From: Methanobacteriota archaeon
GTDB lineage: Archaea; Thermoplasmatota; Poseidoniia; Poseidoniales; Poseidoniaceae
Direction: 5' to 3'
Assembly: GCA_002722135.1 (NCBI GenBank)
Contig: PBKJ01000027.1
Location: 75,833-139,832, forward strand
Length of the DNA stretch: 64,000 nt
Shown one piece after another: positions 32,667-56,302 of the stretch (the first letter of the stretch is position 1; each line of letters opens with the position of its first letter). The notes beneath the pieces are model-generated. The model was not told the origin of the DNA and searched no databases. It saw only the letters and a program-made list of their open reading frames with translations. The position numbers and the translations under genes are program-made.

Positions 32667-35573
32667 GTGCAGCGTGTCTTGTTTGTGCTGGTGCTGCTCA
32701 TGGCGGCACCATGGGGGCCAAGCGTGGCGGCCGTTGAAGCACGTTCCATCACGGTTGAACTCGACATCGAGCGCCATGGCTGGTGGTCCAACGAAAGTGT
32801 GGACGCAGACTTGACCGTGACCAACGCACCCGCGGGCGACGATCTGCAGTTGACCTTGACCATGTTTGACACCAATGGCGTGGTGTTGGAAGAAGCACAA
32901 CCGCTTCCCGTTACCGCCAGTCGTCTGAACGTGCCGCTGGAGATGTCGTCCTTCTACCGAGGCGATACCTTCCACCGACTCTTGGTTCACATCCATGATT
33001 CAAGCGGTCAACTTCTGGGCCAAGCCGAGGTTGAATTCGTGATGTTTCAACACGTCCAACACCCTAACGTCGGACAACTTCTGGTGTTTGGGGATTCCTT
33101 GTCAGACATGGGCAACGCTAAGGCATCGTTCCTCAACACACCCGACGTTCCCCCGTATTGGCAAGGACGCTTCTCGAATGGAGAAGTCTGGCTCGGTGGC
33201 GTGTACGAAGCGTATGGGTTGAGCAGCAGCATCGGTTCAGGCTGGTCGAGCACAGGAGACAACCGGGCTTTCGGAGGCGCTCAAACTGGGTCCGGCTACG
33301 CCTACCTCGTCATTCCAAATGTCGGAACGCAGATCTCGAACTACCTGGCCAACGTTCAATCCACCATCCCAAGCAATGCTGTGGTGAGTCTCTGGGCTGG
33401 AGGGAACGATTTCCTCTACGGCACAGCCAACCCAGACACCATCGTTAGCAACATGGAAGCCCACCTGCGCCAATTGGCTGGAGCGGGAGCTTCCACCTTC
33501 ATCGTACCAAACCTACCACCGCTCGAAGACACACCTGAGATCCGCAGCAAAAGCGCGTCTGAACGGCAGACGGTGCGTGACGACGTCATCGATTACAACA
33601 CAAAATTGGCGACCCTCGTCGCAGATCTTCGTGCGGAACTCGGCATCACCGTCCATACCATCGATGCATGGACCATCTTTGGTGGAATCACGTCTTCACC
33701 CCAAGCCTTGGGACTGACCAACGTTCAGGACGCTGCGTGCACGGGAGGCAGCACTTTGCTTCCATTGCCCATCTGCAACAGTGGAAGTTCCATCGTCAGC
33801 AACGTCGACGAGTACGTGTTTTTTGACAAAGCGCATCCAACCCGAGTGATGCACGATTACATCGCTCAGTTTGCTCTTGAGGCCATCGGTACCCCAGATA
33901 CGGATGCGGACGGCATCGTGGACGACAGCGATGCTTGCCCATGGACACCTGAGGGTGAGTCGCCGGACGCGACAGGCTGTGCGTGGTCCCAACGAGATGA
34001 GGACCAGGACGGCGTCGCCAACGGTGAGGACCTCTGTGCAAGCACCATGGACGGGGTCGAGGTTGACGAACAGGGATGTTCTGCCGCACAGCGTGATTCC
34101 GATGACGACGGCTTGTCGGACCTGGTCGATCCGTGCCCCTTCAGCCCGAACCTCATCGATCACGACCTCGACGGTTGCGCGGATGACGAAGACACAGACG
34201 ACGACAACGACGGTCATCAGGATGCTGCGGACGCTTGTCCACGTGGCGCACTGGGGCCCCATGAGAGGGATCTCGATGCAGACGGTTGCGCCGATGCGGA
34301 GGACACGGATGAGGATGGAGACGGCTTGAGCAACGTCGATGAGGACGCCATTGGCAGCAGCAACCGCGACCAAGACAGCGACGATGACGGGTGGCTGGAC
34401 GGTGAGGATGCATTCCCCATCGACCCAACAGAATGGAGCGACACGGACCGTGACGGGTGCGGCGACAACGCTGACGAATACCCCCTGAACCCGAACGAGT
34501 GCGCCGACTCCGATGACGACGGTGTGGCCGACAACGAAGACGTGTTCCCAGATGACCCTGATGAATGGACGGACCTCGACAGCGACGGTGTCGGGGACAA
34601 CGGTGACGATTGCCCGCTTCAACCTGGCAATTCGACTGGCCCCCCGGGATGTCCCGACCGAGACGGCGACGGTTCACCGGACAAGCGCGACGCCTTCCCT
34701 GACGATGGAGGGGAATGGGCGGATTCCGATGGCGACGGATACGGTGACAACCGAGATGCGCTCCCCAACAACCCCAACGAGTGGAACGACACCGACGCCG
34801 ACGGCTTTGGCGACTTCAGCGATGCGTTTCCAATGAATCCGGATGAATGGAACGACACCGACGGCGACGGTCATGGTGACAACCGAGATGCGCTGCCCGA
34901 CGATCCGAACGAATGGAACGACAGCGACGCCGACGGATGCGGGGACAACACGGACGTGTTCCCCAACGACCCTGAGGAATGCTTGGACAGCGACGGAGAC
35001 GGTCTTGGGGATGCCGCGGACGTCTTCCCTTACGATCCAAAGGAGACCAAAGACACCGATGGTGATGGTGTAGGGGACAACGCCGATGCCTTCCCGAACA
35101 ACCCGCGTGCCCGGTACGATGCCGACGGTGACGGTGTGGCCGACGTCAACGATGCGTTTCCACGGAGTGGGCTCTTCACGACGTGGAACCAAGCCGGCTT
35201 TTCCCTTGGTCTTCTGATGCTCGTGGTCGTCACCCTCGCCATGGTCCGTCGAAGGGGTACATCAAGCGAGCCGATGAGCAAGGACGACATGCTCAGCTCG
35301 ATGCAGTTCGCCGCACCAACCCCCCACGAACCTGAGATTTTGGCTCCACCCTTGCCGACAATCCTTGATGAGGCGCAGAACGATTGGCCGACCCATCCTT
35401 CTGATGTGCCACAACACGTGATGCCGCAAGCAGTGGTCACGCCTACCGTGCACGCAACGTTGCCATCCGAAGTTGAACCTCCAAGTGTTGTCGCGGAGCC
35501 TGCGCCGTCGATGGACGACCCTTGGTCAGAGGTTCACTCCGGATGGGGGGATGAGGTCGAAGGTCAAGGCTGA
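32667..35573 (+). CDS. Large secreted SGNH/GDSL hydrolase (lipase/esterase-like) fused to ~10 thrombospondin-type-3-like Ca-binding repeats, TM anchor and Pro-rich cytoplasmic tail
   Basis: Signal peptide MQRVLFVLVLLMAAPWGPSVAAVEA, GDSLSDMGNA catalytic Ser block, GGNDF and DxxH blocks, repeats D(T/S)DxDGxGDNxDxFPxDPxEW, TM helix GFSLGLLMLVVVTLAMV followed by RRRG and a ~105-aa tail; GTG start. Confidence 0.6.
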   Translation: MQRVLFVLVLLMAAPWGPSVAAVEARSITVELDIERHGWWSNESVDADLTVTNAPAGDDLQLTLTMFDTNGVVLEEAQPLPVTASRLNVPLEMSSFYRGDTFHRLLVHIHDSSGQLLGQAEVEFVMFQHVQHPNVGQLLVFGDSLSDMGNAKASFLNTPDVPPYWQGRFSNGEVWLGGVYEAYGLSSSIGSGWSSTGDNRAFGGAQTGSGYAYLVIPNVGTQISNYLANVQSTIPSNAVVSLWAGGNDFLYGTANPDTIVSNMEAHLRQLAGAGASTFIVPNLPPLEDTPEIRSKSASERQTVRDDVIDYNTKLATLVADLRAELGITVHTIDAWTIFGGITSSPQALGLTNVQDAACTGGSTLLPLPICNSGSSIVSNVDEYVFFDKAHPTRVMHDYIAQFALEAIGTPDTDADGIVDDSDACPWTPEGESPDATGCAWSQRDEDQDGVANGEDLCASTMDGVEVDEQGCSAAQRDSDDDGLSDLVDPCPFSPNLIDHDLDGCADDEDTDDDNDGHQDAADACPRGALGPHERDLDADGCADAEDTDEDGDGLSNVDEDAIGSSNRDQDSDDDGWLDGEDAFPIDPTEWSDTDRDGCGDNADEYPLNPNECADSDDDGVADNEDVFPDDPDEWTDLDSDGVGDNGDDCPLQPGNSTGPPGCPDRDGDGSPDKRDAFPDDGGEWADSDGDGYGDNRDALPNNPNEWNDTDADGFGDFSDAFPMNPDEWNDTDGDGHGDNRDALPDDPNEWNDSDADGCGDNTDVFPNDPEECLDSDGDGLGDAADVFPYDPKETKDTDGDGVGDNADAFPNNPRARYDADGDGVADVNDAFPRSGLFTTWNQAGFSLGLLMLVVVTLAMVRRRGTSSEPMSKDDMLSSMQFAAPTPHEPEILAPPLPTILDEAQNDWPTHPSDVPQHVMPQAVVTPTVHATLPSEVEPPSVVAEPAPSMDDPWSEVHSGWGDEVEGQG
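33870..35160 (+). repeat. Array of ~69-nt degenerate tandem repeats encoding the TSP3-like DxDxDG repeats
   Basis: Recurrent gacggcgacgg(t/a)...gacaac...ttccc...gatga(a/g)tgg units; the protein-level period is 23 aa. Confidence 0.55.
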
Positions 35574-35575
35574 GA

Positions 35576-36946
35576 TCAGAAGGGGAGCGAATCCCCGTTG
35601 AGGTCCATCTCGCCCTCCTTCATCATCTTCCGCATCTGCTTGTTGAGGCGACGGTTTCCTCCCATCCCCTTCATCATCTTCCGCGAACGGTTCCATTGCC
35701 CAATGAGTTCACGCACGTCCTTTTCCTTCACGCCGGAGCCCTTGGCGATACGACGAACGCGCTCGACTTTGATTTTGGCAGGCTCGTTCTTCTCCCACGT
35801 GGTCATGCTGTCCATGATGACGCGATAGCGGTCGAGGTTGGCTTGCATGGCTTCCTTTTGGGATTTGGAGGCTTGCGCCATTCCACCGAGCATACCTCCG
35901 GGAAGGAAGGACATCAGTTTGTCAATCGTGCCCACCTTGGACATCATTTCCATTTGCTTGTACATGTCGTTGAGGGTAAAACGACCGGACATCAGGCGCT
36001 GCGTCAAGCGCAAGGCTTCCTCCTCATCGAGGTCCTCAGGAGCCAGATCAATCAGGCCCTGGATGTCACCCATGCCGAGCAATCGCGAGATGAAGCGGTC
36101 GGACTCGAAGCGCTCGAGGTCCTTGACCTGCTCACCCACACCGATGTGGACGATGGGAGCGCCTGTGGCAGCAACGGCCGACAGGGCGCCACCACCACGT
36201 GCAGTACCGTCGAGTTTCGTGATGACGATGCCCGTCACGCCGGCCAAGTCGTGGAAGGAAGCAGCGACCGGCCCTGCTGCCTGTCCAACCTGCGCGTCGA
36301 TGACCAACCAGCGCTCTTCGGCTTGGGCCAAGGCCGCGATTTGGTCAAGTTCCACCACCAGTTCCTCGTCGAGTTCATGCCGTCCTGCGGTGTCGATGAT
36401 GACGAAATCAGCCGATGCCGTGGCTTCAAGCCCGTTCCTGACGATGGTCGCTGCGTCTTTGGTCTCGGGTTCACCATAGACCTGAACGGACGTTCCTTCG
36501 AGCAGTTGACTCAGTTGTGCATAGGCTCCAGGCCGGTGAACGTCGGCCTCGATGACCGCCACGCGCACGCCATGCTTCTTGCGGTACCACTCGGCCAACT
36601 TCGCCGTCGTGGTCGTCTTTCCTTGACCGTAAAGACCGACGAGCAGCAGGGTGTTGCCGTGAGGTCGGAATTCTGCAGACGGGCCAAGCAAGCGAACCAA
36701 TTCGGTGTACAGGATGTTCATCGCGTGGGTCTGGAGGGTGATCCCGGGCCGGGGCTCCTCCTCGCGCATCCTTGACTCGAGGCGTTCGACAATTTCCTTC
36801 GTCTGTCGGACGTTGAAATCCGCTTCCTGCAAAGCCCTGCGCAGGCTCTTCGTCATGTCACGGAGTTCTTCCTCGTCAAGGCGACGCTTGGACTTGAGAA
36901 AGCCGAGGGACCGGAAAATCCCCTTGGAGAGGCCTTCCAGCGCCAT
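35576..36946 (-). CDS. srp54: Signal recognition particle protein SRP54
   Basis: N-domain, G-domain GLYGQGKTTT / DTAGR / TKLD motifs and a Met-rich C-terminal M-domain. Confidence 0.85.
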   Translation of the reverse strand: MALEGLSKGIFRSLGFLKSKRRLDEEELRDMTKSLRRALQEADFNVRQTKEIVERLESRMREEEPRPGITLQTHAMNILYTELVRLLGPSAEFRPHGNTLLLVGLYGQGKTTTTAKLAEWYRKKHGVRVAVIEADVHRPGAYAQLSQLLEGTSVQVYGEPETKDAATIVRNGLEATASADFVIIDTAGRHELDEELVVELDQIAALAQAEERWLVIDAQVGQAAGPVAASFHDLAGVTGIVITKLDGTARGGGALSAVAATGAPIVHIGVGEQVKDLERFESDRFISRLLGMGDIQGLIDLAPEDLDEEEALRLTQRLMSGRFTLNDMYKQMEMMSKVGTIDKLMSFLPGGMLGGMAQASKSQKEAMQANLDRYRVIMDSMTTWEKNEPAKIKVERVRRIAKGSGVKEKDVRELIGQWNRSRKMMKGMGGNRRLNKQMRKMMKEGEMDLNGDSLPF

Positions 36947-36986
36947 GTCTACGCCTCACAGGGGGTGGGTTTCAACCTGTTGACGG

Positions 36987-38231
36987 TCAGGAAATCGGGA
37001 CTGTGAGGTGCAGCACCTCGCCACGGAACCGAGCGACCACCGTGCTGGCTTTGACCGCGCTGGTCGTTGGCACATGCCGCTCATGACCGTTCACGCCGAC
37101 AAGCAGCCGTCCTTCCTCACTGCGGAGGCTGAGGTCTTCTCGGGCGAGGCCGGGAAGGTGAAGTTGGATGGTTTCCTCGTCATCGGCTTGGTCCACCACA
37201 AGCGAGCGGTGTAGTTCGTGGTAGAGTGGATCGCCCATTGGATGCGGACCGATGCCCTCGGGCATGGCCTGAAGGTCGCCGTAAAGGACCTGCGCGAGGT
37301 TACGGAGCCCATCCAGACCGTGAACTTCCGTGTCCATCAACGGCACACAGACCGGCGTAAAATCGCCGAGGGCCTCCTCAAGTTCGCGGATCCTGCCCTG
37401 CTCCTCTGAGCGACGACGTGCCAAGAAGGGGTGATCGAATTCAGGCGTCACGCGGTTCACCACGCAGCCCGTGACCGGCAACCCGTGGTGCTGAAGGGCT
37501 TCGTTGGCCCGGACGGTTTCGTTCACGCCCATGCGTTCTGGAATGGTCACCAAGGTGAACCGTGTCGTGGACGGGTCCGAGAGGATCCTACGAATGTGCA
37601 ACACGCGACGTCGAAAGCGCTCCAGCTCGTCCTTCATCGCATCGCTTTCCTTTCGCCCGAAGAGCATCGAGCGGATGCCACCCGAAGCGCGCATCAAGCG
37701 AAGAAGCCGGTCCGACCACGCATCGATGAGTTCGGGTAGGGCCAAGAAACGCAGGGTGTGACCCGTCGGAGCCGTGTCGAACACGACCACGTCCCAACGA
37801 AGATCCTCGATGTGCTTCAGCAGCTCATCGAACGCCAGCGCTTCGTCAAGACCGGGCAAGAGGAGGTCAGACGCCTCGACCTCGCTGCCAACATCGGCCG
37901 CAGCTCCACCGAGGTCGCCGCCGGCCATGCCCGCCAAGCCAGCGAATGGACCGCCGTTTCCGAGGCCCTGCATCGCCTCGCTCAATTTTGGCATGGCCTG
38001 GGCCACGCGGGCCTCCGGGTCCATCTCCAAACCGAAGAGGCCCGGAACGCCTTCGACGGGCGTTGGTTCCGGTCCAAGCTCAAGGCCCAACGAGTCCGAT
38101 GTGGAGTGGGCCGGATCGCTGGACACCAACAACACCCGGAGCCCCGCGTCGGCAAGGCGGATGGCGCTCGCTGCCGAGCAGGTGGTCTTTCCGACCCCAC
38201 CTTTTCCACCAAACAACAGCAGTCGGGCCAT
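36987..38231 (-). CDS. ArsA/Get3-family ATPase (tail-anchored protein insertion / anion-transporting ATPase homolog)
   Basis: GGKGGVGKTT P-loop and DTAPTGHTLR signature. Confidence 0.75.
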   Translation of the reverse strand: MARLLLFGGKGGVGKTTCSAASAIRLADAGLRVLLVSSDPAHSTSDSLGLELGPEPTPVEGVPGLFGLEMDPEARVAQAMPKLSEAMQGLGNGGPFAGLAGMAGGDLGGAAADVGSEVEASDLLLPGLDEALAFDELLKHIEDLRWDVVVFDTAPTGHTLRFLALPELIDAWSDRLLRLMRASGGIRSMLFGRKESDAMKDELERFRRRVLHIRRILSDPSTTRFTLVTIPERMGVNETVRANEALQHHGLPVTGCVVNRVTPEFDHPFLARRRSEEQGRIRELEEALGDFTPVCVPLMDTEVHGLDGLRNLAQVLYGDLQAMPEGIGPHPMGDPLYHELHRSLVVDQADDEETIQLHLPGLAREDLSLRSEEGRLLVGVNGHERHVPTTSAVKASTVVARFRGEVLHLTVPIS

Positions 38232-38307
38232 GGTTCGGCTGAGGAACGGGGTCGTTTGAACTTCTCGACGTGGGATGCTTCATCAACGTGAGGGCCTGCC
38301 TTGAACC

Positions 38308-39066
38308 ATGCAAGAGGCCGTGGTCTTCCAGATCGCGGCCCTGCTCGCCCTGCTCGGCATGGGATTGGCATGGCGCGGCGTGATGACGCAGTACGCGGGC
38401 TTCTACGACCTGAGCCTCGCATGGAGCCACGTCTTGTGGGGTTTCGTCCTCGGCGCCGTGGTGGCCGCGCTTGAATTCCAAACGCTGTTCATCCCCTACT
38501 ACGACGTCGTGGTCGGTGGTGCACCGGCTTCTCAAGGTCCAAACCTCCTCGTCTTGCTGTGGTTTGTCTCGATGCACTCAGCCGCTGCACACCTCATCCT
38601 ACGACGGGCGAAGGTCCGCGAGGCGAGCGCCCAAACGACGTCCGGCTGGGCCCTCGGTGCAGCGATGGGCGGCATGCAAGGCTTGTTCCTAAGCGCACAA
38701 CTGCTCAACGCCGAGGGGACCTTCGACGGTGCGCATCGGTGGCTTGGAGCCGCTGCCTTCGGGCTGTTGTTTCCGCGTCTTGAGGGCACCTTGACCGCCT
38801 GGCAAGGTCATTTGATGCTGCAAGGACGACGTGTGGGTGCTGTTGTTCGCGCCGCAGTGTGGCGCATGGTGCTCCTCAGCCTCGCCTACTATGCCTTCTT
38901 CCAGCCTCTGATTTGGTTGGCGGCAGCCGTGCTCTTGTTGTCCATGGAACCCCGCGTGAGCGCTTGGGTTTGGGACGGCCTCAGCCCGCAAGCAAAGCGC
39001 GCCCTGCGGCGGGTTCGAGCAGAGCGTGCACGCGAACAGCGCACACGGGAACGAGAGGAGGAGTAA
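38308..39066 (+). CDS. Hypothetical polytopic membrane protein with basic Arg/Glu-rich C-terminus
   Basis: 6-7 predicted TM helices; weak resemblance to intramembrane protease families (E..F, H...H motifs), not convincing. Confidence 0.3.
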   Translation: MQEAVVFQIAALLALLGMGLAWRGVMTQYAGFYDLSLAWSHVLWGFVLGAVVAALEFQTLFIPYYDVVVGGAPASQGPNLLVLLWFVSMHSAAAHLILRRAKVREASAQTTSGWALGAAMGGMQGLFLSAQLLNAEGTFDGAHRWLGAAAFGLLFPRLEGTLTAWQGHLMLQGRRVGAVVRAAVWRMVLLSLAYYAFFQPLIWLAAAVLLLSMEPRVSAWVWDGLSPQAKRALRRVRAERAREQRTREREEE

Positions 39067-39111
39067 ATCCTCCAAGGAAGCGTTAAACGGCGTCGGTCGG
39101 CAGAAGGATGT

Positions 39112-40647: not shown

Positions 40648-40651
40648 TGAG

Positions 40652-42070
40652 ATGCTGGTGGTGATTGCAGGTGCTGGTCGCGTTGGTTTGGGCTTGGCTG
40701 AGGCCCTCATCAAGGAGCAGAAGAACGACGTCGTGCTTCTCGACATGAATTCGAGGGCCGTCAAGAACGCGCAAGCCTTCGACATGCTGGTCCTGCACGG
40801 CGACATGCTCGACCGCCAGGCCTTGATCGAGGCAGGGATTGAGCGTGCGGATGTGTTCATCGCGGCGACCGATAAGGACGACCGCAACGTGCTCGCATGC
40901 GGTTTGGCCAAACACTTGCACGAACATCGCGGCGGAAAGCGTGAGGACCTGTTGACCATTTGCCGCATCCGAGATGAGACCATCCTCGACGAACAGGCTC
41001 ACGGCGGCCTTGCTGCCTGGGCAGAAGTGGATCGGGCCATCGACCCCATCGACGGAGCCATCAGCCGGCTCTCATCCGGCATTCGGGCATCCTCCTTCGC
41101 CGAAGTGATTCCCTTCGACCACGAAGCCTACCTCGTGGAACTCGAAATCACGGAAGACTGTCGCCTCCCCCTGGACGTGCCTTTGGCCGACGTCGAGGTG
41201 GAAGCCGGTTCTCCTGTGCCGCTGCTGATTGGCCTCAAGCGCAAGGGCACGCGGAGCATCGTGCCCTCCGGCACCACGGTGCTTCGACCAGGTGATCGTA
41301 TTGCGGTGGCCACGACGGGCCTCGGCTCATTTGACGACCTGGTCCACACCTTCGGACATGATGTGCGCGCTTTCCCCGCTCAGCCAAAGGTGGTCGTGGT
41401 CGGTGGATCAAGGCTTGGCCTACGCATCGCCGAGCATTGGCTTGATGAGGGCGCACACGTGATGATCGTTGAAGGCGACCTCCAAACCGCGAACGCCATC
41501 TCAGGTCACCGCATCGGCGGACACCCAGAACTCGAAGTCATCCACGGTGATCACGTCTCGCGAGAGACCATGGAAGAGGTGGGCATGGGCGGCATGGACG
41601 TCGCTGTCGGCGCCTTGGACGATGACCACGCCAACATCGCCGCGATGTTGTTTGCCATGGACCTCGGCGTACCCAACACTGGACTGATCCTCAACGACAA
41701 CGACCTCGTCCACGTCGTGCAGCGCATGGGCATCAGCTTCTCTGTGGACATCACCCGCGTGGCCGTCGACGAGTTGTTGACGCTCGTGCACAGGAAACTC
41801 GCTGGGCATTATGCGGTTCTCTCCACGATTCCCAACGTCGTTGGCGTCACCCACGAGGTCACAAAGGCGGCCAAGTTCTGTGGACGACGCATTCGAGAGG
41901 GTGGATTCCCCGACTGGATGCGGATCGCCTTCATTCAGCGCAGCGATTCGCATGGACGCTGGTCGTCGCACGACCCCCACCCCGATGAGACCCTGATCGA
42001 ACACGATCGCTTGATCATCTTCACGTCCCCCGACCATGTCGCCGACGTGGAGAAAAAATTCCGGGTGTGA
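40652..42070 (+). CDS. trkA: K+ uptake regulatory protein TrkA (tandem RCK/NAD-binding domains)
   Basis: Two GxGxxG Rossmann motifs (VIAGAGRVG; VVVGGSRLG) with TrkA_C domains. Confidence 0.8.
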   Translation: MLVVIAGAGRVGLGLAEALIKEQKNDVVLLDMNSRAVKNAQAFDMLVLHGDMLDRQALIEAGIERADVFIAATDKDDRNVLACGLAKHLHEHRGGKREDLLTICRIRDETILDEQAHGGLAAWAEVDRAIDPIDGAISRLSSGIRASSFAEVIPFDHEAYLVELEITEDCRLPLDVPLADVEVEAGSPVPLLIGLKRKGTRSIVPSGTTVLRPGDRIAVATTGLGSFDDLVHTFGHDVRAFPAQPKVVVVGGSRLGLRIAEHWLDEGAHVMIVEGDLQTANAISGHRIGGHPELEVIHGDHVSRETMEEVGMGGMDVAVGALDDDHANIAAMLFAMDLGVPNTGLILNDNDLVHVVQRMGISFSVDITRVAVDELLTLVHRKLAGHYAVLSTIPNVVGVTHEVTKAAKFCGRRIREGGFPDWMRIAFIQRSDSHGRWSSHDPHPDETLIEHDRLIIFTSPDHVADVEKKFRV

Positions 42071-47366: not shown

Positions 47367-47408
47367 TGAAGATGGCGGAGGCCACGCCACGGGCGTCGTG
47401 AGAAAAAC

Positions 47409-50400
47409 ATGCCAGAAATCACCTACCTCGAAACCTCCGATGATACGGAGGCCTTGGCGGCCCGCTTGAGCGAGCCTGTGCGACGGTGGTTCCTCGACAA
47501 GTTTCCCGACTTCACTGCCCCTCAGAAGATGGCCATCCCCGCCATCATGAACGGGGAACACCTGCTCCTGTGCAGCCCAACGGGGTCAGGAAAAACGCTG
47601 ACGGCTTTCCTCACGGTCATCGATGACTTGGTGCGTAAAGCGCTCGACGGCTCACTCAAGGACCAGGTGTACTGCATTTACATTTCACCGATCAAAGCCT
47701 TGGCGAATGACATCGAGCGGAACCTCCTCGGTCCGCTTGAAGAAATCAAGGCGCGCTATTTGCCGGACCGGGCCAAAGAAATCCGCGTGGGACTGCGGAC
47801 CGGCGACACCTCACAATCGGACCGCCAGAAGATGCTGAGGAAACCACCGCACATCCTCATCACCACCCCTGAAAGCATGGCCATCGCCGTCGGCTCCTCG
47901 AGGTTCCAACCCATCGTCTCGCGCGTCAAGTGGATGATCATCGACGAGCTGCACAGCCTGGTCCCAACCAAGCGTGGGGTGCACCTCAGCCTTACCTTGT
48001 CCTTCCTCGACACGCTGCTGAAGGACCCGGTTCAGCGCATCGGCATTTCCGCGACCATGGAACCCTTGGACACCGTGGCCGAATATTTGGTGGCCAGCGA
48101 TGACCGTGAATCCCGCGGAGAAGATCAGCGCATCATGGTCGCCAAAATTTCTGGCTCGAGGGAACTCGATCTGGACATCCTCATCACGCATCCCCGCTTT
48201 GCGGACCGCTCCGTGGCCCAGACCTTGGAGGCCAACGTGGAAGCCATCGCGGACCTGATCTCCGCCCACACCACCACACTGGTCTTCGCCAACACGAGGA
48301 AAATGACCGAGACGCTCGTCCAACGCCTCCGCCCCTTCTTGGGTGAACTCGTGGCTGGACATCACGGCTCGATGGACAAGAACATCCGGCTGGAGGTTGA
48401 ACGGAAACTGAAACTCGGCCATCTGCGGGCCGTGGTGACCTCGTCCTCTCTCGAGATGGGCATCGACATCGGTTCGGTTGATCTCGTCATCCAAGTCGGC
48501 TCCCCAGGCGACATCGCCACCGCCCTCCAGCGCATTGGCCGCGCGGGCCACCATGTTGGTGGCATCCCCCGTGCACGTTTCCTGCCGTCCTCCGTGGACG
48601 ACTTGCTCGAACTTGCCGCCCTCCAAGCGGCGATTCAAACGGGCGACATGGACCGCCTGTCTTTCCCACAAAACTGCCTTGACGTCGTCGCGCAGTTCCT
48701 CATTGGTTTGGTCATCAACGAGGAGCTTGACATCGACGAGGCCTACGAGATTGTCGTCAACGCATGGAGCTACAGGAATTTCGCGTACGACGATTTCATC
48801 GAAGTGCTGGACCTGTTGGAAGACGAGCGAAGAATCTGGGTCGACTGGGAAGAGAACACCTTCGGAAAGCGCGGATACTCCCGCATGATCTACTACACCA
48901 ACATCGGAACCATCGCACCGGACAACTCCTACCTTGTGTTCAACGCCGAGGGATCCATCCTCGGAAAGTTGTCCTCCTCCTTCGTGGCCAGCTTACGGAC
49001 CAGCGACGTCATTCTCCTCGGTGGCTCGACCTACCGCGTCAACACCATCCAAGGCACGCGTGTCAACGTCAGCAACGTCACGGGATACCGTCCGACCGTG
49101 CCCTCCTGGTCCGGTGAAGCGCGTTCCCGCTCGGCCGAATTGTCCTCGTCCTTGCTGGATTTGATCGGCCGGTGTGCGGTTGCGCTACGACGTGAAGTCG
49201 ACCCGCGCACGGTGCTCACTGAGGCCTATTCCATCGGTCGCGATTCGGCGGAAATCATCGCGCGCCACCTTGAAGAACACGTCCTCACGACTTTCCAAGT
49301 CCCCGACAAGGACCGTATCCTTGTTGAGCAAATCATCGGCGGCCCGCATCCGACCTACCTCATCACGACCTGCAGAGGACGCGGGTTCAACACGGCGCTT
49401 GGCTACTTCATGGCGGGACTGGCCGAGCAAGCCAGCATCCCGGTCATCGAGATGTCCTTCGATGAAAACGGACTGCTCCTCAAAACGGCCCAAGACGTGG
49501 ATCCAGGTGCGATGTACGAGGCCTTCTCGGCGGACAACCACATGGACGTCATCGAGCGGTACATCATCGGCACGCAAATTTTCGCCAAGCGATTCAGGGA
49601 AGTTGCCGGACGCAGCCTCATCATCCCCAAGCGGATTGGTGCGGAGGAAATCAGCCCGCAACAATTCCAGCAGCGCGCGGATGCTCTCCTCAATCGGCAC
49701 AGAACCATGGAGGGGTCCATCCTCATCCGTGAAGCAAAGAACGAGATCCTCTACGGCGACATCGACCTCGGAGGTCTGGAACAATTCCTGACCTCATGCC
49801 GCGAGGGACAGGCACGGATTGTTCACATCAGGACGACCTTGCCCAGCCGCATTGGCATGTCGCTGTACATGTCCGCGTTCGAGGACCTGATGTCCATGCG
49901 CACGAGGGCCTTCCTCGTCAAGGACATCGACCCGGCCATCCTCGAGCGCTTGCTCGGGAGGCGCTCTCTGGCCACGGAGATGACCAACGAGCAAATCAGT
50001 GACTATTACGCCAACAAAGTCCCAGTCCCTGTGGACGCGGACACCCTGTTGGCGCTTATGGAACACGGTGGTGGCCTCGACCGATCGTTCGGAAATCCAC
50101 TCTATAGAGAGAAACTCAGCGGCATTGACCACGAAGTAATCCGCGGTTGGGTCGAGGAATTGTGCACCGCAGGGCGAATCACGAAAATCGAAGCAACCGG
50201 CATGGAGGAACTCGACGGCAAGTGGTTCAGCACCTACATGGGCGAAATCCACGGCACCCTCGGGTGCCTTGCCGCCAACGGCGGACGGGACGTGGAAGAC
50301 CTCCTCACGCTGCACACCGCAGGGGTGACCTACCGCATGGCCTCCGCCTTCAGCGGAACAAAAGTCACGTCGTGGACGGACATGGAATTGGGCGACCCCC

Positions 50401-52697
50401 AGGAAGCCCTGCGCGTGAAGCTCATCGAGATGCTCGGCTCTGAAGGCCCACAGACCGCTGACCACCTGGAGGCGCGGTTGCCCTTCCCACGGTCGATGGT
50501 CGAGCGGACCATCCACCAACTTGAGACTCGAAACGTCATCAGCATCGGCTTCTTCACGCAAACCGAAGAGGCCGAGTTCATCCTCAAAGTCGACGAGCAC
50601 CGCATCACGGGCGGCGAAGAAGAGGTCATCGAGTACCGCTCCATCCAGAACATGATCCTCGACAAGTCGTTCACCATGTACGATGACGTCGACCAAGCCT
50701 TTGACCAGCACCTGCTCTTCCAGAAGCAGCAGGAACTGCTCTACCGGATCAACGATTTCAGGTTCAGCGATTGGAAGGACCTGCAGTTGGACCGTGACAT
50801 CGTCAACGGGCGGCTCCTGCACAACCGCCAAGGGTACACGACGCGAAGGAACCTTCCCATGCTGCTCGGACTCAAACCTGAGCCTTACATCGGTGCGATG
50901 GAGGCCGACCTGCTCGACCGCATCCTGCCCGGCGAGGAACCTCAGCGCTCCGAAATCGTGGCCATGTATCCGAAAGGCGACGAACACAAGCAACTCCAGC
51001 GTGACGTCAAGAATGGCCTCGCCAACCTCGAGCGCCAACTTTTGGTCGCGAAACAATTCGAAGAAGTTCCAGGACGTCGTCGACGTTTGTCCTTCTACCA
51101 CCGCGTCCACGAGGTCTACGACGGGTTGTCCTTCGAGGACGCTTTGTGCGAGGTCATCCGTCGCATCGGGCCCATCAAGGCCAACACGCTTCGGTTCTAC
51201 GTCAGCCGTGCCTACGAAGAATTGGTCATCGCCCTCAAGGCGCTGGAACAGGATGGACGCATCAGCCGCGTTACTACGCTGGTGCCAGAACCCGAGGATT
51301 TCTATTGCGCTCCTGAGGAAGTCGGGACCTTCCGTCGCGCTCGGCGAGAGGACCGGTCGATGCGCATCCTGACGCAATCCGACCCCTACGTCTCTCGTTT
51401 CATCTGGGAGGTCCGCGCCATGTTGGACCGCGGCTGGTACCTGCCCGTGTTCAAGGGCATCGACCCGGTTGGGAAGGTCCTGATGTTCAAGGTGAACGAC
51501 TACCTCGAAGTCAAGGACATTCAGATTCCCGCAGCTTACCTCGAGGAATTCTGCGAAGCCTTCGACGTGCTGCTCAACAACCACGCCGAACAACTGGTGG
51601 ACGTCGCGGTCCTCAGCGGCATCAACGGTCAACCGATCAACGAAGTGGAGCAGGTCTGGCGCGACGCGCTGGGGAGCATCGGGTTCAAGCTCGCCGGGGA
51701 GCGGATGATCCGAGGGGGCATCGTCGAAACCCAGCCACGGAACCTCGCCGATCGTGCCTTGTTCCACAAGCACCACCTGCACCAATCGGCACGGCTGGAG
51801 AACGAGTTCCTCGCCCTCAAGAGGATTCGAGAAGTCCGTGACGACTTCGCCCTCCGTGGACGTGCTGAGGTCTACCGCGTGGACCTGAAGAGCATGGCGA
51901 GTGCGAACCGACTGCACCAGGGCGTCAACCTCCGAGGCCACCAGTCCTGGGCCTCCTACGAGCACTTCCAGACCCTGTTGGCCATCCGGGGCATTGAACC
52001 CGATGAGGACCTTGCTGACGTGCTGGAGTTCTTCTCGACACATTCGGATCATGAGTTGTTCAAAGAACGCTATGCGCTGAGCCAATCGGAGTTCAGAAAA
52101 TTGGTTCAACCCCTCATCAGGTCCGGTCACATCGTCCAAGATTTCCGAGGAGGATTCAGGACGGTCACCGTGGATGCCTCGCTTGAACGGTCTGTTTTGC
52201 GCAAGGAGTACCTGCGCTCCCTCGTGGCCGATTTCCCCGTCATGACGATCAAGCAACTCTTGTCCTTGGCAGGCAGCCACTTCAAGCCGGAGGAGGTCAA
52301 AGCCATCCTGACGGAGTTTGAGGAAGATGAGACCCTCATCAAGGGCTTCCTGATCGATGACCTGCACGAGGTCTGTTGGGGGCGAAAGGACCTCCTCGCC
52401 GAGGCCAAGGAACTCCAACCGATGCGCGACTTCGTGCTTCCGCCCTCGGACCCCATCGCGCCGTACTTTGCTGGCACGCTCAAGGAAAAGTTCGGCTTTG
52501 GCAGCGCCTATCTGGTGTTCAAGAACGGCGAACCGGCTGCCGCCTTCAAGGCCAACACCAGAAACCGCGTCATCGAAGTCACGGACTATGAAGGGAAGGA
52601 AGACGCGTGGCGCATCGTCAAGGAATTCGCGTGGGAGCACCAGATGCCGCTCACGTCCGAGGTCAGGATTGGCGGTCGACGGTTGAGCAGTTCCTGA
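47409..52697 (+). CDS. lhr: Lhr-family large ATP-dependent DEAD/DEAH-box helicase with an ~850-aa C-terminal extension
   Basis: FTAPQKMAIPAIMNGEHLLLCSPTGSGKT (Q motif / Walker A), DELH box, ..ARAGH.., followed by WH/domain-4-like regions and a long C-terminal region without recognisable catalytic motifs; 1762 aa. Confidence 0.75.
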   Translation: MPEITYLETSDDTEALAARLSEPVRRWFLDKFPDFTAPQKMAIPAIMNGEHLLLCSPTGSGKTLTAFLTVIDDLVRKALDGSLKDQVYCIYISPIKALANDIERNLLGPLEEIKARYLPDRAKEIRVGLRTGDTSQSDRQKMLRKPPHILITTPESMAIAVGSSRFQPIVSRVKWMIIDELHSLVPTKRGVHLSLTLSFLDTLLKDPVQRIGISATMEPLDTVAEYLVASDDRESRGEDQRIMVAKISGSRELDLDILITHPRFADRSVAQTLEANVEAIADLISAHTTTLVFANTRKMTETLVQRLRPFLGELVAGHHGSMDKNIRLEVERKLKLGHLRAVVTSSSLEMGIDIGSVDLVIQVGSPGDIATALQRIGRAGHHVGGIPRARFLPSSVDDLLELAALQAAIQTGDMDRLSFPQNCLDVVAQFLIGLVINEELDIDEAYEIVVNAWSYRNFAYDDFIEVLDLLEDERRIWVDWEENTFGKRGYSRMIYYTNIGTIAPDNSYLVFNAEGSILGKLSSSFVASLRTSDVILLGGSTYRVNTIQGTRVNVSNVTGYRPTVPSWSGEARSRSAELSSSLLDLIGRCAVALRREVDPRTVLTEAYSIGRDSAEIIARHLEEHVLTTFQVPDKDRILVEQIIGGPHPTYLITTCRGRGFNTALGYFMAGLAEQASIPVIEMSFDENGLLLKTAQDVDPGAMYEAFSADNHMDVIERYIIGTQIFAKRFREVAGRSLIIPKRIGAEEISPQQFQQRADALLNRHRTMEGSILIREAKNEILYGDIDLGGLEQFLTSCREGQARIVHIRTTLPSRIGMSLYMSAFEDLMSMRTRAFLVKDIDPAILERLLGRRSLATEMTNEQISDYYANKVPVPVDADTLLALMEHGGGLDRSFGNPLYREKLSGIDHEVIRGWVEELCTAGRITKIEATGMEELDGKWFSTYMGEIHGTLGCLAANGGRDVEDLLTLHTAGVTYRMASAFSGTKVTSWTDMELGDPQEALRVKLIEMLGSEGPQTADHLEARLPFPRSMVERTIHQLETRNVISIGFFTQTEEAEFILKVDEHRITGGEEEVIEYRSIQNMILDKSFTMYDDVDQAFDQHLLFQKQQELLYRINDFRFSDWKDLQLDRDIVNGRLLHNRQGYTTRRNLPMLLGLKPEPYIGAMEADLLDRILPGEEPQRSEIVAMYPKGDEHKQLQRDVKNGLANLERQLLVAKQFEEVPGRRRRLSFYHRVHEVYDGLSFEDALCEVIRRIGPIKANTLRFYVSRAYEELVIALKALEQDGRISRVTTLVPEPEDFYCAPEEVGTFRRARREDRSMRILTQSDPYVSRFIWEVRAMLDRGWYLPVFKGIDPVGKVLMFKVNDYLEVKDIQIPAAYLEEFCEAFDVLLNNHAEQLVDVAVLSGINGQPINEVEQVWRDALGSIGFKLAGERMIRGGIVETQPRNLADRALFHKHHLHQSARLENEFLALKRIREVRDDFALRGRAEVYRVDLKSMASANRLHQGVNLRGHQSWASYEHFQTLLAIRGIEPDEDLADVLEFFSTHSDHELFKERYALSQSEFRKLVQPLIRSGHIVQDFRGGFRTVTVDASLERSVLRKEYLRSLVADFPVMTIKQLLSLAGSHFKPEEVKAILTEFEEDETLIKGFLIDDLHEVCWGRKDLLAEAKELQPMRDFVLPPSDPIAPYFAGTLKEKFGFGSAYLVFKNGEPAAAFKANTRNRVIEVTDYEGKEDAWRIVKEFAWEHQMPLTSEVRIGGRRLSSS

Positions 52698-52750
52698 AGG
52701 CCAAACCATCGCACCAACAGGTTTTGAAGACGCGGGGCCGTCTTCCCCCC

Positions 52751-55700
52751 ATGCACGACGGACGCCCCCGTGCGCTCGCCCTCGTGGCCCTCTTGGTGCT
52801 CTCCACCACCCTCGCCACCTTGAGCCCGACCGCCGGCGCGGAATCATCCTTGGACATCGAAGTGCTGGACACCAAGGTCAATCCAGCGAACAACCACACC
52901 TATCACCTGCTTTCTGCCTCGTCATGGACGGAAGCAGCGCAGGCCGCCCGTGGCCTCGAAGGCTTCCTCGTCACGGTGGACGACGAAGCAGAAAACACGT
53001 GGCTGCACGAAACGTGGGGCAACGACGGAAACGTCACGCGCCATTTGTGGACCGGCCTCAACGATGCCGCGGAAGAAGGCGTCTTTCGCTGGCATGACGG
53101 CACGCCCTACATCCACCGTCAGTGGGGCGAAGATCAACCGAGCATGACCGATGAAGAGGACTACGTGCACATCACGGGTCCAAACATGGGCTCCATCCAG
53201 CCCGGCGATTGGAACGACTTGGAGAACGACCCGCAGTACTTCCCGGTCTACGGCGTGGTGGAGCTTGGCCCCGGCGCGGATTTCGCCTTGCGCTTCGACG
53301 GTGAGGACGACCACGTCATCACGGCCGATGACACGTCCCTGCGCGCACCCTCCTCGGAGGGTGAGTTGACCATCGAAGCGAGGGTCTATCCCACAGATCT
53401 CGACGGCATCCACACCGTGGTGATGTACGGCGACTATGGATACGGTCTCTACCTCAATGACGGACGCCTGGGGTATTCCTCAGAATACAGCCTGTCCAAA
53501 AACGCCCTGAGCGAGGCCAACACCACGCTGAGCGCGGACACGTGGTCCACCGTGGCCGTCGCCGTGAACGCATCCACGGGAGGCACCTTCTTCCTGAACG
53601 GCGAGGCCATCGGCTCGTTTGACGCCACACAAGCAGAGATTCCAGCGGGTGACTTCGGCTCCAACGACTGTTACGATGCAGGCCTCGCCTGCGAGAACCT
53701 GGTGATAGGACGCCACGGCGCAGGCGCAGACCGCTACCACTTCGAAGGCATGATCGACCACGTCAGCATCAGTTCTGACGACCACCGAATCACCACAGAC
53801 GACGGTGGCATCGGCCTGGACAGCTCCGACGATCCGCTCTCCACCTGGACGTTTGGTGAAGGCGAGGGAGACCTCACCATGGACAACGCCGAGAGGAACG
53901 GCACGATTCATGGCGCGGCTTGGGTGATGCCAGATGGCTCGGTGGTGGCTCAGGCTTTGGAACTCGAAAACGGCGATGAACTCGCCATCGAGGACGTGAG
54001 CGCCGGCGACACGCTCCTCTTCTTTGCCGAACTCCCTGAATACACTCGGGACTTCAGCGTCCAAGCCTTCGCATGGTCAGCCGGCAAAGGGAAGGAAGAC
54101 GGCGATGCGGAGTTTAGCCTCTACCACGACATCGACCGCGTTCCTTCAGCGTGGTCGCACATGGATGAAGTCGAAAATTGGGGCTGGGGCGGTGTGTTCG
54201 CCTCCTACAGTTGGCCTGATGCCGGCGTACACTGGTTTGCACTGCAGGCAGACTCTGACCTTGACGAATTCAGCCTGTGGGTGGAGTGGGACGTCGCGGA
54301 AGCCCCGCCAACCTTGGAGGACATGATCGAACTCAAGCACGGCATTCCTGTCGCCAACCAAGACCTGCAAAGCCAGCGCGGGAATGAATTCGGCGACACA
54401 ATCCAGTATTACGTCAACGTCACCGAGCCGCTTGCCGATCTCGCGGTGGAAACGTACGGCGGTGACGGTAACGTCGAACTCGCCATCTCCTACGGGGGCC
54501 CACCGGACCCCTTCGGGCAATGGAGCGAGTGGGACGAGTGGGACATCATTGGAGCACCCGGTTTCCTTGGTGAGGACGATGCGGATGTCGAAGCCTACGA
54601 AGATTGGTCGATGGGGCCCGGGAACGACGAGGAGGTTCACCTCTACAACGTTGAACCCGGCACCTACTACGTGACGGCGTACACCTGGGGACGAGCCTTC
54701 GATTTCAGCATCGTCGCCGACCTGACCCCAATGCCGACCAACGGCGAGGCCTCCGACGCCATTGCCCTGACCGCAGGCGTTCCGTACGGCCCCTTCTCCG
54801 GCTACGACGGTCTCAGCCAATACTTCTCCATCGACGTGCCGGAAGGCACAGAACGGCTGGAAGTTCGCCTGGACGACGGCGTCGGAGAAGCCGACCTCCA
54901 TCTTGCCTACGCGTCCACGCCGACGGAGACGGTCTACGACCACCGGAGCACGTCGCCTGGCTCGAACGACATGGTCGCGTTCAACGACCCCACACCGGGA
55001 ACGTGGATGATTCTCGTCCACACCGAGCGCGTGTTCAGCGGCACCACCATCCTCGCGGAGTTTGCCGACCGGTACGTCTGGGATTGGGACGGTGAGCCCA
55101 TCCAGTTGTTCAATGGAGAGGCCATTGTGGGCATCGAGGCAGAAGAAGGCACGGTGTTGGAATTCTTTGGCATCCTCGAGGAACCCGCCTCACCGCTTGA
55201 GGTCACGACCTGGGGCGAAGATGGGGTCATCGAACTCGAAGGCGAAGCGGAGCCCTACGATTGGGACCTGATCTTCGAGGAAGGGCCTCGTGGACGGCAA
55301 TGGGGCGAAGCCACGTGGATCGAAGGCGACGGCGCCAATTGGTTCTGGTACGTTGACATCGCCGCAAACGGGCGTTTTGACGTGACCGTTGAGGTGGTTG
55401 AAGACCTCAGTGCACTCGGCATCATGGCGACGTGGGTTGAGGCCGATTTGCCGCCCGTGGACGACGACGATGACGTTGACAGCGACGAACCCTTTGATCC
55501 TCAAGGGTGCGAAGACCGAACGATCGAGTGGTTCAGCGAACTTGATGCCAACCGGGACGGGTTTGTCAGCCTCGATGAGCACCGGCCGCACCCCGATACG
55601 GGCACACCCGGAGAGGACCTCGACCGCAACCAAGACGAACGCCTCCAAATGGCCGAACTGGAAGCCGATTTGTGCTCCTGTGCACAAGAATTCCTCTTCA

Positions 55701-56302
55701 TTTGGGAACAAGCCGACGAAGCCGATGCCATCGCGCTCGAGGATTTGGAAACGGTGTCTTACCTGAACGAGATTGATTTGGAGGCCATGGACCGAGACGG
55801 CGACGGCGACATCGACGACCGTGAGGCTGAGCGTCACACCCTGGCCTGTTCAACGACCTACGACCCGATCGACCTCGACGGTGACGGTGTCCCCAACGAC
55901 GACGACGCGTTCCCGGAAGACCCCGACGAGAGCGAAGACTCGGACGGCGACGGCGTGGGCGACAATGCAGACCTTGTCGCGGGTGTCAACGACAGCATGG
56001 TGACCTACGGAGCCGCGGCGGCCGTCCTCGGTCTGGTCATTGTCTTGCTGCTGACCATGTTGCGCCGAGGACCCGGTGGTGCACAGCCGGTTGACCCGTG
56101 GGCGGAACTCGGGGACGAGAAGCGCATGCCAGACCTCTTCGAACCCGCAACCATGGCTCAGGAACCGTCCATGGCGTTTGATTCAGCTCCATCTTCTGCG
56201 AGCAACAACCCCGTACAGCCTGCACCTGAAGTCCCAGGCATGACCGATCTGCCGCCGCCGTTGAACGATGCGTTGCCAAGCGAACCACTCGAGTGGCGAT
56301 GA
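52751..56302 (+). CDS. Large secreted surface protein: C-type-lectin-like domain + LamG/ConA-like domain + 3 PPC (pre-peptidase C-terminal) domains + EF-hand-like Ca sites + TSP3-like repeats + TM anchor + Pro-rich cytoplasmic tail
   Basis: Signal peptide MHDGRPRALALVALLVLSTTLATLSPTAGA; CTLD-like WTGLNDAAEEGVFRWHDG...WNDLEND; LamG-like block (LRFDG...LNGEAIGSF); PPC-like blocks (YYVNVTE..., YFSIDVPEG...ADLHLAY..., ...); DANRDGFVSLDE / DRDGDGDIDD loops; DLDGDGVPNDDDAFPEDPDESEDSDGDGVGDNAD; TM AAAAVLGLVIVLLLTML + RRG + 75-aa tail. The track ORF begins at 52607 inside lhr; start moved to the signal-peptide Met. Confidence 0.6.
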   Translation: MHDGRPRALALVALLVLSTTLATLSPTAGAESSLDIEVLDTKVNPANNHTYHLLSASSWTEAAQAARGLEGFLVTVDDEAENTWLHETWGNDGNVTRHLWTGLNDAAEEGVFRWHDGTPYIHRQWGEDQPSMTDEEDYVHITGPNMGSIQPGDWNDLENDPQYFPVYGVVELGPGADFALRFDGEDDHVITADDTSLRAPSSEGELTIEARVYPTDLDGIHTVVMYGDYGYGLYLNDGRLGYSSEYSLSKNALSEANTTLSADTWSTVAVAVNASTGGTFFLNGEAIGSFDATQAEIPAGDFGSNDCYDAGLACENLVIGRHGAGADRYHFEGMIDHVSISSDDHRITTDDGGIGLDSSDDPLSTWTFGEGEGDLTMDNAERNGTIHGAAWVMPDGSVVAQALELENGDELAIEDVSAGDTLLFFAELPEYTRDFSVQAFAWSAGKGKEDGDAEFSLYHDIDRVPSAWSHMDEVENWGWGGVFASYSWPDAGVHWFALQADSDLDEFSLWVEWDVAEAPPTLEDMIELKHGIPVANQDLQSQRGNEFGDTIQYYVNVTEPLADLAVETYGGDGNVELAISYGGPPDPFGQWSEWDEWDIIGAPGFLGEDDADVEAYEDWSMGPGNDEEVHLYNVEPGTYYVTAYTWGRAFDFSIVADLTPMPTNGEASDAIALTAGVPYGPFSGYDGLSQYFSIDVPEGTERLEVRLDDGVGEADLHLAYASTPTETVYDHRSTSPGSNDMVAFNDPTPGTWMILVHTERVFSGTTILAEFADRYVWDWDGEPIQLFNGEAIVGIEAEEGTVLEFFGILEEPASPLEVTTWGEDGVIELEGEAEPYDWDLIFEEGPRGRQWGEATWIEGDGANWFWYVDIAANGRFDVTVEVVEDLSALGIMATWVEADLPPVDDDDDVDSDEPFDPQGCEDRTIEWFSELDANRDGFVSLDEHRPHPDTGTPGEDLDRNQDERLQMAELEADLCSCAQEFLFIWEQADEADAIALEDLETVSYLNEIDLEAMDRDGDGDIDDREAERHTLACSTTYDPIDLDGDGVPNDDDAFPEDPDESEDSDGDGVGDNADLVAGVNDSMVTYGAAAAVLGLVIVLLLTMLRRGPGGAQPVDPWAELGDEKRMPDLFEPATMAQEPSMAFDSAPSSASNNPVQPAPEVPGMTDLPPPLNDALPSEPLEWR

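Follow-up and report, generated by a model that had tools for sequence, protein, structure and literature searches.

Two surface proteins with a common layout

The DNA analysed here (the window) is a 64,000-nucleotide stretch of contig PBKJ01000027.1 in assembly GCA_002722135.1, positions 75,833 to 139,832 of the forward strand, from an archaeon of the family Poseidoniaceae; its G+C content is ∼60%. No planktonic archaea are more abundant in surface seawater than the Poseidoniales, which are uncultured. Two large proteins encoded in the window, A (968 amino acids, aa) and B (1183 aa), appear to be single-pass membrane anchors with motif-bearing cytoplasmic tails. The kind of anchor is known, and the tryptophan motifs of the tails, together with a small C-terminal domain (the mini-domain) that ends many tails of the same lineage, are undescribed: no description of such tails in archaea was found in the literature searched. 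Homologues of A and B, where named, are assigned to Poseidoniales, Poseidonia, Thalassarchaeaceae or 'Marine Group II' (MGII).

The two proteins have the same layout: a signal peptide, unrelated heads, thrombospondin type 3 (TSP3) repeats, one C-terminal helix, a basic RRRG (A) or RRG (B) cluster and an acidic, Pro-rich tail (Table 1). In this respect a first-pass annotation of the window, made by a model from the letters alone, described both genes correctly. A survey of the open reading frames (ORFs) of the window found the helix-plus-tail architecture in no further ORF. The RRG and RRRG strings are simply the basic cluster expected from the positive-inside rule; in many orthologues a single Arg or Lys stands in their place.

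Protein A is 100% identical to a deposited protein from a metagenome-assembled genome (MAG; P0121). Its hydrolase domain also resembles the NCBIfam model of the PlaA lysophospholipase, weakly and under the model cutoff (2.9e-29). The loops of its stalk follow the pattern D-x-D-x-D-G-x-x-D, with a period of 22 residues from residue 570 onward, and match the Pfam TSP3 family PF02412 with 32.2 bits, above the cutoff of 25. The tail contains 17% Pro, has a net charge of −14 and ends in DDPWSEVHSGWGDEVEGQG. In the AlphaFold2 model of the helix and tail of A, the tail has a predicted local distance difference test (pLDDT) score of 50-71 and contains one short helix, at KDDMLSSM; the remainder, including the terminal motif, is modelled without structure at a pLDDT of 50-67, and the tail is predicted to be disordered.

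The start of protein B was placed at the Met at 52751 because orthologues of exactly 1183 aa align over 100% of its length; the ORF itself extends 48 codons further upstream (52607-52750, plus strand), overlapping the end of the gene for an Lhr-type helicase. The Lectin_C, Laminin_G_3 and PPC domains score 30.0, 44.4 and 62.6 bits against Pfam cutoffs of 22.6, 27.6 and 25.9, respectively, and an EF-hand match is weak and sub-threshold. The tail of B contains 20% Pro, has a net charge of −8 and opens with PVDPWAELGDEKRMPDLF / GPGGAQPVDPWAELGDEKRMPDLFEP. Only two to three TSP3-like loops were found in B by regular expression (residues 1014-1071), and the Pfam TSP3 family was not reported on B. 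TSP3 loops are present in both proteins, as the first-pass annotation had claimed, but the strict repeat pattern that it gave, D(T/S)DxDGxGDNxDxFPxDP, fits only seven of the 19 loops in A.

Table 1. Features of proteins A and B, in window coordinates.
Feature	Position	Strand	Details and basis
Protein A gene	32667..35573	+	968 aa; signal peptide, N-terminal domain, GDSL/SGNH hydrolase, TSP3 stalk, membrane helix, cytoplasmic tail
A signal-peptide-like hydrophobic segment, residues 1-23	32667..32735	+	hydropathy peak at 5-23, score 2.03
A GDSL lipase/acylhydrolase domain, residues 138-401	33078..33869	+	PF00657, 2e-21, 77.5 bits; FGDSLSD present
A TSP3 stalk, 19 loops, residues 411-826	33897..35144	+	count by regular expression; PF02412, 8.3e-08
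A single C-terminal transmembrane helix, residues 842-860	35190..35246	+	hydropathy 2.12; AlphaFold2 helix, pLDDT ∼94
A tail, 108 aa, acidic, Pro-rich, RRRG at start	35247..35570	+	composition; AlphaFold2
A juxtamembrane element DDMLSSMQFAAP	35283..35318	+	counterpart of clade F.E.M[LF]..AP..RP in orthologue tails; AlphaFold2 short helix KDDMLSSM
A C-terminal motif DDPWSEVHSGWGDE	35514..35555	+	instance of clade [DE]x W x2 [LV] x3 W G; W953 and W960 invariant
Protein B gene	52751..56302	+	1183 aa; signal peptide, C-type lectin, LamG, PPC x2, weak EF-hand, TSP3 loops, membrane helix, tail
B signal-peptide-like segment, ∼residues 1-30	52751..52840	+	hydropathy peak 8-26, score 1.94
B Lectin_C (56-156) and Laminin_G_3 (183-342)	52916..53776	+	Pfam, 9e-07 and 2.5e-11
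B PPC (pre-peptidase C-terminal), best stretch, residues 689-757	54815..55021	+	PF04151, 6.6e-17, 2 stretches
B two TSP3-like repeats, residues 1040-1075	55868..55975	+	63% identity to A repeats, E = 6e-08; regular expression
B single C-terminal transmembrane helix, residues 1083-1104	55997..56062	+	hydropathy 2.45
B tail, 79 aa, acidic, Pro-rich, RRG at start	56063..56299	+	translation, composition
B juxtamembrane motif DPWAELGDEKRMPDLFEP	56093..56146	+	acidic Trp, then hydrophobic pair LF; W1117 invariant in 28 orthologues
B C-terminal PLEWR	56285..56299	+	P0001-P0005, L001, L002, L027 and L029 end alike; Trp is the second-to-last residue

The succession of stalk, hydrophobic helix and basic residues looks like the PGF-CTERM, LPXTG and GlyGly-CTERM signals (PMC6219818, PMC11980579, doi 10.1101/2023.06.07.544157). 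The helix and basic cluster might accordingly be a cleavable C-terminal sorting signal of the archaeosortase, rhombosortase or rhomboid type, with the tail discarded after attachment of the protein to lipid or wall. Such tripartite signals (PGF-CTERM/archaeosortase A, LPXTG/sortase, PEP-CTERM, GlyGly-CTERM/rhombosortase and MYXO-CTERM/myxosortase) likewise stand at the C-terminus of secreted surface proteins and are often carried by unrelated passengers, TSP3-repeat proteins among them; A in fact weakly matches the models of two of these, the TSP3 MYXO-CTERM cohesion proteins MtsC and MtsD, through its repeats. A and B differ from them on several counts. No sorting-signal model of NCBIfam/TIGRFAM matched at E ≤ 1, either in the full proteins or in the C-terminal 151 (A) and 121 (B) aa, and in neither A nor B does a PGF, PEF or Cys signature stand before the helix. 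Where the known signals end in a few basic residues, the tails run on for 79-108 aa and have invariant residues far from the helix; in a peptide that is cut off and lost, such residues would have no purpose. Among the window genes scanned, none encodes an exosortase or archaeosortase. We therefore give the sorting-signal explanation very little credence, in agreement with the first-pass annotation, and C-termini of the A and B type are not to be classed as sortase-type signals.

Two DPW strings in non-equivalent positions

Both tails contain a DPW string, and the first-pass annotation had treated DPW(A/S)E...GDE as a single module common to both. The motifs are of different kinds and occupy different positions, and the overall similarity of the tails is not significant. 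In B the Trp lies 13 residues past the first Arg, is accompanied by RMPDLF and is orthologous to the invariant Trp of the B family described below. In A the string falls within the final 19 residues, at a distance of ∼90 aa from the membrane, where DPWSEVHSGWGDE forms part of an extreme C-terminal W-x2-[LV]-x3-W motif with Trp at positions −9 and −16. The most fitting view of the DPW strings is that they are separate short linear motifs which share a chemical type, a Trp amid acidic residues: a family juxtamembrane motif in B and a clade-specific terminal motif in A. The Trp-bearing tail peptides of the two proteins are PVDPWAELGDEKRMPDLFEP and SMDDPWSEVHSGWGDEVEGQG; MPDLFEPATMAQEPSMAFDSAPSSASNNPVQPAPEVPGMTDLPPPLNDALPSEPLEWR is an example of a tryptic tail peptide.

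A few tryptophans are held constant in divergent tails

More than 300 relatives of B were recovered at E ≤ 1e-5, the best 120 being near-full-length orthologues from both Poseidoniales families. When 28 diverse orthologues (44-77% identical to B) are aligned, the sole invariant column past the last TSP3 repeat is W1117, the Trp of DPWAELGDE. The mean column identity of the tails is 29%. The first Trp lies 8 to 16 residues past the first basic residue in all 103 non-redundant B tails. The residue before this Trp is usually D, E, H or M; acidic residues come after it, and next an element of the type [FM]-x-E-x-M-[LMF].

Most B orthologues end in a conserved stretch of ∼38 residues, LMGM.D..G.E.IEYP.GSG..W.R..P...W, which is the mini-domain. 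The clade of window B lacks this stretch and ends in LPSEPLEWR. The orthologues display a stepwise decay of the mini-domain toward window B: it is full in most, shortened in P0007, which ends in GMEVLEHEGVMWQRASDGLSWDRR, and reduced in P0006 and L017 (1-2391, plus strand) to the ending YGSDA[YF]LWD.., with only PLEWR left in the window clade. PLEWR is thus possibly a remnant of the lost Trp-rich mini-domain. We rejected a direct identification of either PLEWR or the W.D..SG.W ending of A as a vestigial mini-domain, since the mini-domain profile gives window A −1.1 bits and window B −1.3 bits, as it does shuffled sequences, against up to 48 bits (E = 4e-14) for B orthologues; for B, it is the decay series alone that suggests such an origin. 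Two further B clades without the mini-domain end in EISEVLDDLFD or DMKVSDLYD and keep the juxtamembrane Trp (P0008-P0028; L010, L015, L016, L018, L036-L038).

In the AlphaFold2 model of a B-orthologue tail, the mini-domain forms a small antiparallel β-sheet of three to four strands with a pLDDT of ∼95. A low-confidence helix (pLDDT ∼60-70) directly follows the juxtamembrane Trp, and the tail is disordered elsewhere.

Protein A has more than 500 relatives at E ≤ 1e-5, of which the best 120 are orthologues. The 25 closest clusters are 57-100% identical to A, with very divergent tails of 98-129 aa. All 25 tails of this sub-clade carry W-x2-[LV]-x3-W within the last 22 aa (for example SEDWGDLASGWGD, DDGWGALESDWGA and SDEWADLGEGWG, each at the C-terminus). 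In the clade alignment of helix and tail, the only invariant residues are one Arg after the helix, W953 and W960; a common juxtamembrane element, F.E.M[LF]..AP..RP.Q.P.F, is also recognizable. A itself has no Trp at the juxtamembrane position. Distant A orthologues have tails of 27-50 aa that end in RP.GPPPPGSF or APSFD[DE]W[DE], and their Trp lies 9 to 13 residues past the basic residue, at about the distance seen in B. Counted over the A family, about half of the non-redundant tails, mostly those of distant orthologues, have a Trp at +9 to +17.

The DPW strings of both proteins shift among their relatives. The closest relatives of both keep D-P-W-[AGS]-[DE]-[LVMS] (P0122 for A; P0001-P0005 for B), and in the next clades both are found as D-x-W-x-[DER]-[LV] (P0123-P0127 for A; P0006 and P0007 for B). 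This drift in both proteins hints at a possible common reader of the two motifs.

Acidic tryptophan tails recur on Poseidoniales surface proteins

The first-pass annotation had asked whether such tails extend beyond the pair, and similar ones do recur on many unrelated surface proteins of the Poseidoniales. The alignment of B orthologues was scanned against one genome per species. Of the 80 loci returned, ∼39 are B-orthologue loci, and the others are matches to TSP3 repeats, bacterial genomes included. An ORF scan of the 80 loci revealed further large proteins with a helix and a tail, whose ectodomains consist of six fasciclin domains, of TIG plus TSP3 or of CarboxypepD_reg/Big_1-like domains, or have no Pfam match. 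Many of these proteins have Trp-rich endings, such as GQMRDGYEVVEYPDGSGNWWWRDPNTGNWNEWT, and several have [DE]W[ST][EQ] soon after the basic cluster.

The terminal motif of A was absent from the 857 long ORFs of the 80 loci. A pattern scan of metagenomes for the same motif gave seven matches, comprising three A orthologues and four chance-like matches. On one metagenome contig of 3 kb, a 76-aa ORF (L084:427-465, plus strand) ends in GDEWGDLVSEWGA, the terminal pattern of the A clade, and lacks a membrane helix; it is probably a chance match, because a few such matches were expected.

The mini-domain is the searchable part of these tails. It comprises ∼38 aa of the form DGYEV.EYP.GSG.WW[WY]RD..[ST]G.W.EW up to the stop codon (for example L045:5399-10477, plus strand; L040:1-2448, plus strand; L079:13400-16396, minus strand; P0254; P0257) and has no match in Pfam or PDB. 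Pfam matches to tails and mini-domains at E ≤ 10 were discarded as noise (DUF2510, E = 1.2; Tcp10_C, 0.059). With the alignment of the mini-domain as query, a word-indexed search for homologues recovered 12 short fragments only, and an exhaustive profile search was used instead. Against 1.84 billion representative proteins, the profile gave 245 matches at E ≤ 0.001, 16 of them at E ≤ 1e-10, almost always at the extreme C-terminus. All named cluster members are MGII or Thermoplasmatota MAG proteins. BLAST grouping of 36 long members together with A and B resulted in nine ectodomain groups, with 16 of the 36 linked to A through TSP3 stalks. The first-pass annotation had envisaged that a profile of the last ∼150 aa might define a tail family; neither window protein carries the domain by which the tails of this lineage can be searched.

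Trp positions were counted in 98 tails, taken from the 150 best-scoring mini-domain proteins. At 9 to 11 residues past the first basic residue, Trp makes up 8-11% of residues per position, as compared with 0.5% elsewhere in the linker. Of the 37 tails with a Trp at these positions, 31 have an acidic residue at one of the three positions before it. The sequence logo around the Trp is DDDW[DS]EE, and [DE]x[LM]F often comes next. The motifs of A and B would belong to this wider Poseidoniales pattern, an acidic Trp ∼10 residues from the membrane and often a Trp-rich β mini-domain at the end; A and B lack the latter.

Other endings recur as well. The ending LPxGWT.EQW.YYG..WLD follows a Pro-rich linker in L017:5070-10616 (minus strand), L044:7175-10570 (plus strand) and L075:195-3566 (plus strand), and is internal in P0393; the L044 and L075 proteins also have a juxtamembrane DW[ST]Q. 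Zinc-ribbon-like tail ends with four Cys occur on large single-pass proteins of Poseidoniales/Thermoplasmata (L044:2242-6354, L053:7316-10870 and L053:11199-15527, all on the plus strand), another sign that Thermoplasmatota surface proteins often bear small cytoplasmic end-domains.

Trp prefers membrane interfaces, and the aromatic and hydrophobic elements of the tails could be interface segments that fold onto the inner leaflet and stabilize or orient the anchor, rather than sites for a partner. Such a role would fit the fixed short distance between helix and motif in B and many other tails, as well as the short helices modelled after the Trp in the B orthologue and at KDDMLSSM in A. However, the confidence of the helix is low (pLDDT ∼60-70), a Pro lies inside the segment in window B, and the invariant double Trp of A sits ∼90 residues from the membrane at a free C-terminus. 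Moreover, the motifs are surrounded by stretches of Asp and Glu, which anionic lipids would be expected to repel. We regard a membrane-interface role as improbable.

Probable cytoplasmic tails with proposed docking motifs

The usual picture of surface-protein anchoring in prokaryotes comprises a lipid, a linkage to the wall or a bare membrane helix, and conserved cytoplasmic tails are not part of it. The explanation that we favour, with a probability of roughly 0.6, is that A and B are type-I anchors whose cytoplasmic tails bear short docking motifs. The N-terminal signal peptide would direct export through Sec and put the enzyme head of A or the lectin head of B outside the cell. The calcium-binding TSP3 repeats form the stalk, a long one in A and a short one in B. 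The C-terminal helix, the only other hydrophobic segment, would act together with the Arg residues as a stop-transfer anchor, leaving the tail in the cytoplasm; we place the tails there because of the signal peptide, the single membrane helix and the basic cluster. The tails evolve fast, and all that stays constant in them is a small set of short aromatic motifs. B has the juxtamembrane acidic Trp (+8-16), an element of the type [RF]M..[ML]F after it and a C-terminal Trp; A has the juxtamembrane F.E.M[LF]..AP element and the terminal W-x2-[LV]-x3-W-G. The motifs may dock one or more cytoplasmic or membrane-peripheral partners that position, cluster, sort or turn over the surface proteins.

Several observations weigh against this explanation. 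The topology was derived from hydropathy and the positive-inside rule only, and docking by a partner is what we infer from the sequences. Conservation among orthologues is proof of constraint, not of the type of function. BLASTP of tail against tail gave nothing significant beyond the TSP3 repeats. In a test with 5000 shuffles, the score of the best ungapped segment between the two tails, which is ATLPSE/DALPSE and not DPW, was reached by 10% of shuffles (p = 0.10). Because of these two results, the pair of tails alone does not go beyond chance. The terminal motif of A appears, in the sequences scanned, only in A orthologues and so does not look like a general tag; for the same reason a partner common to A and B is hypothetical. 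On a juxtamembrane profile built from 37 proteins of other families, the juxtamembrane stretch of B scores 0.0 bits, equalled by 754 of 2000 shuffles, and the first 36 tail residues of A (starting with RRRG and containing DDMLSSMQFAAP) score 4.7 bits, equalled by 23 of 2000. The 98 tails were selected for the mini-domain and may be homologous, so the samples are not independent. The anchoring or docking module of the first-pass annotation stands as far as the strong constraint on both DPW motifs is concerned, but not as far as it would unite the two proteins.

Some of the same observations could mean that the DPW likeness of A and B is a coincidence, each motif being specific to its family and serving an unrelated purpose, with no common tail system. 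The pairwise similarity that is not significant, the different distances of the motifs from the membrane, the confinement of the A motif to A orthologues and the absence of a score for B on the juxtamembrane profile all agree with this. So does the rarity of W-x2-[LVIM] in an acidic context among other tails (4 of 98). Against coincidence speak the shared D-P-W-[AGS]-[DE]-[LVMS] of the closest relatives and its like shift in the next clades, the Trp at about B's juxtamembrane distance in about half of the A-family tails, and the recurrence of acidic-Trp tails across many Poseidoniales surface proteins. On balance we consider coincidence rather unlikely.

A broader version of the docking explanation may be suggested tentatively, and we consider it rather unlikely: a lineage-wide system of intracellular recognition, in which the acidic-Trp juxtamembrane motif, terminal Trp motifs such as W-x2-[LV]-x3-W-G and the mini-domain on at least 245 clusters would serve tethering or sorting through a cytoplasmic scaffold. 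Candidates for the scaffold may be flotillin/SPFH, a cytoskeletal protein or a TPR protein, and A and B may be clients that keep the linear motifs only. A few Trp-centred residues are invariant in fast-evolving tails and the mini-domain stands on many unrelated ectodomains; therefore something inside the cell would seem to read the tails. Through such reading, adhesins and ecto-enzymes acting on particles and algal material would be placed, clustered, turned over or coupled. If docking is true, the tails provide specific peptides and a single small domain with which to fish for the machinery, with no need of a culture. If the recognition system is true, it would be a functional analogue of the tails of eukaryotic adhesion receptors.

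Resemblance to known systems

At the level of design, the nearest analogy to the tails of A and B appears to be the tail of the apicomplexan TRAP/MIC2-family adhesins. In these proteins, a Trp near the C-terminus and acidic residues are required to bind an intracellular linker (aldolase/GAC), which couples the tail to a motor (PMC3448169). TRAP and MIC2 are likewise type-I adhesins whose short tail is acidic and has a Trp close to its C-terminal end, and A and B fit this description at the sequence level only; the endings PLEWR in B, APSFDEWD in distant A orthologues and DWG[DA] in the A clade illustrate the likeness. They differ in being eukaryotic, in having no sequence homology to A or B and in carrying TSP type 1 rather than type 3 repeats, so the analogy is one of design only.

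Eukaryotic acidic aromatic motifs provide further likenesses. The LC3-interacting region or Atg8-interacting motif is defined as [W/F/Y]xx[L/I/V] with upstream acidic residues and is bound by an Atg8-family receptor. Others are the 'W-acidic' motif bound by the TPR domain of kinesin light chain and the DPW/DPF motifs bound by the AP-2 appendage; such motifs lie in disordered regions. DDPWSEV and VDPWAEL fit the Atg8-type pattern [DE][DE]-W-x-x-[LV], a match of only four to six residues, and the Poseidoniales juxtamembrane logo looks similar to the W-acidic motif, again in pattern only. For the mini-domain alone, there is a likeness to small Trp-rich β domains such as the WW domain and DUF2510 (PF10708), namely a sheet of ∼38 aa with conserved Trp; one variant has a faint DUF2510 match.

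Rinke et al. 2019 (PMC6461757, here and below in the portion of the text consulted) note thrombospondin and flotillin genes across Poseidoniales and take their presence to indicate adhesion. A and B come from the same organisms, have the same repeat type and belong to this set of thrombospondin proteins. Archaeosortases, anchors, S-layers and tails are not mentioned in that portion of the paper.

Neighbouring genes

Besides A and B, the genes of the window are archaeal housekeeping genes, among them those for MetRS, the proteasome α subunit, a PAN-type AAA ATPase, primase, the Lhr helicase, SRP54 and TrkAH. SRP54 and an ArsA/Get3-like ATPase with an HSP20-like C-terminal domain adjoin A downstream, tail to tail (35576-36946 and 36987-38231, both on the minus strand). 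Both are factors of membrane-protein targeting; their position next to A is probably a coincidence. Neighbouring genes were set aside as functional clues, as beyond these two the window holds housekeeping genes and no sortase.

Directly upstream of A (31944-32606, plus strand) lies a gene for a 220-aa protein with one N-terminal membrane helix and an acidic linker rich in Thr, Asp and Glu; it has no Pfam match. A further VDDDPW string directly before a stop codon, on the plus strand at ∼17142, belongs to a short frame under a 328-aa minus-strand ORF and was treated as spurious. The Lhr-type helicase upstream of B (47409-52697, plus strand, 1762 aa) contains DEAD, Helicase_C, WH_Lhr and DEAD_assoc domains, and its ∼900 C-terminal aa have no Pfam match. 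An antisense ORF of 1017 aa (49794-52847) overlaps the helicase gene and is presumably an artefact of GC-rich sequence.

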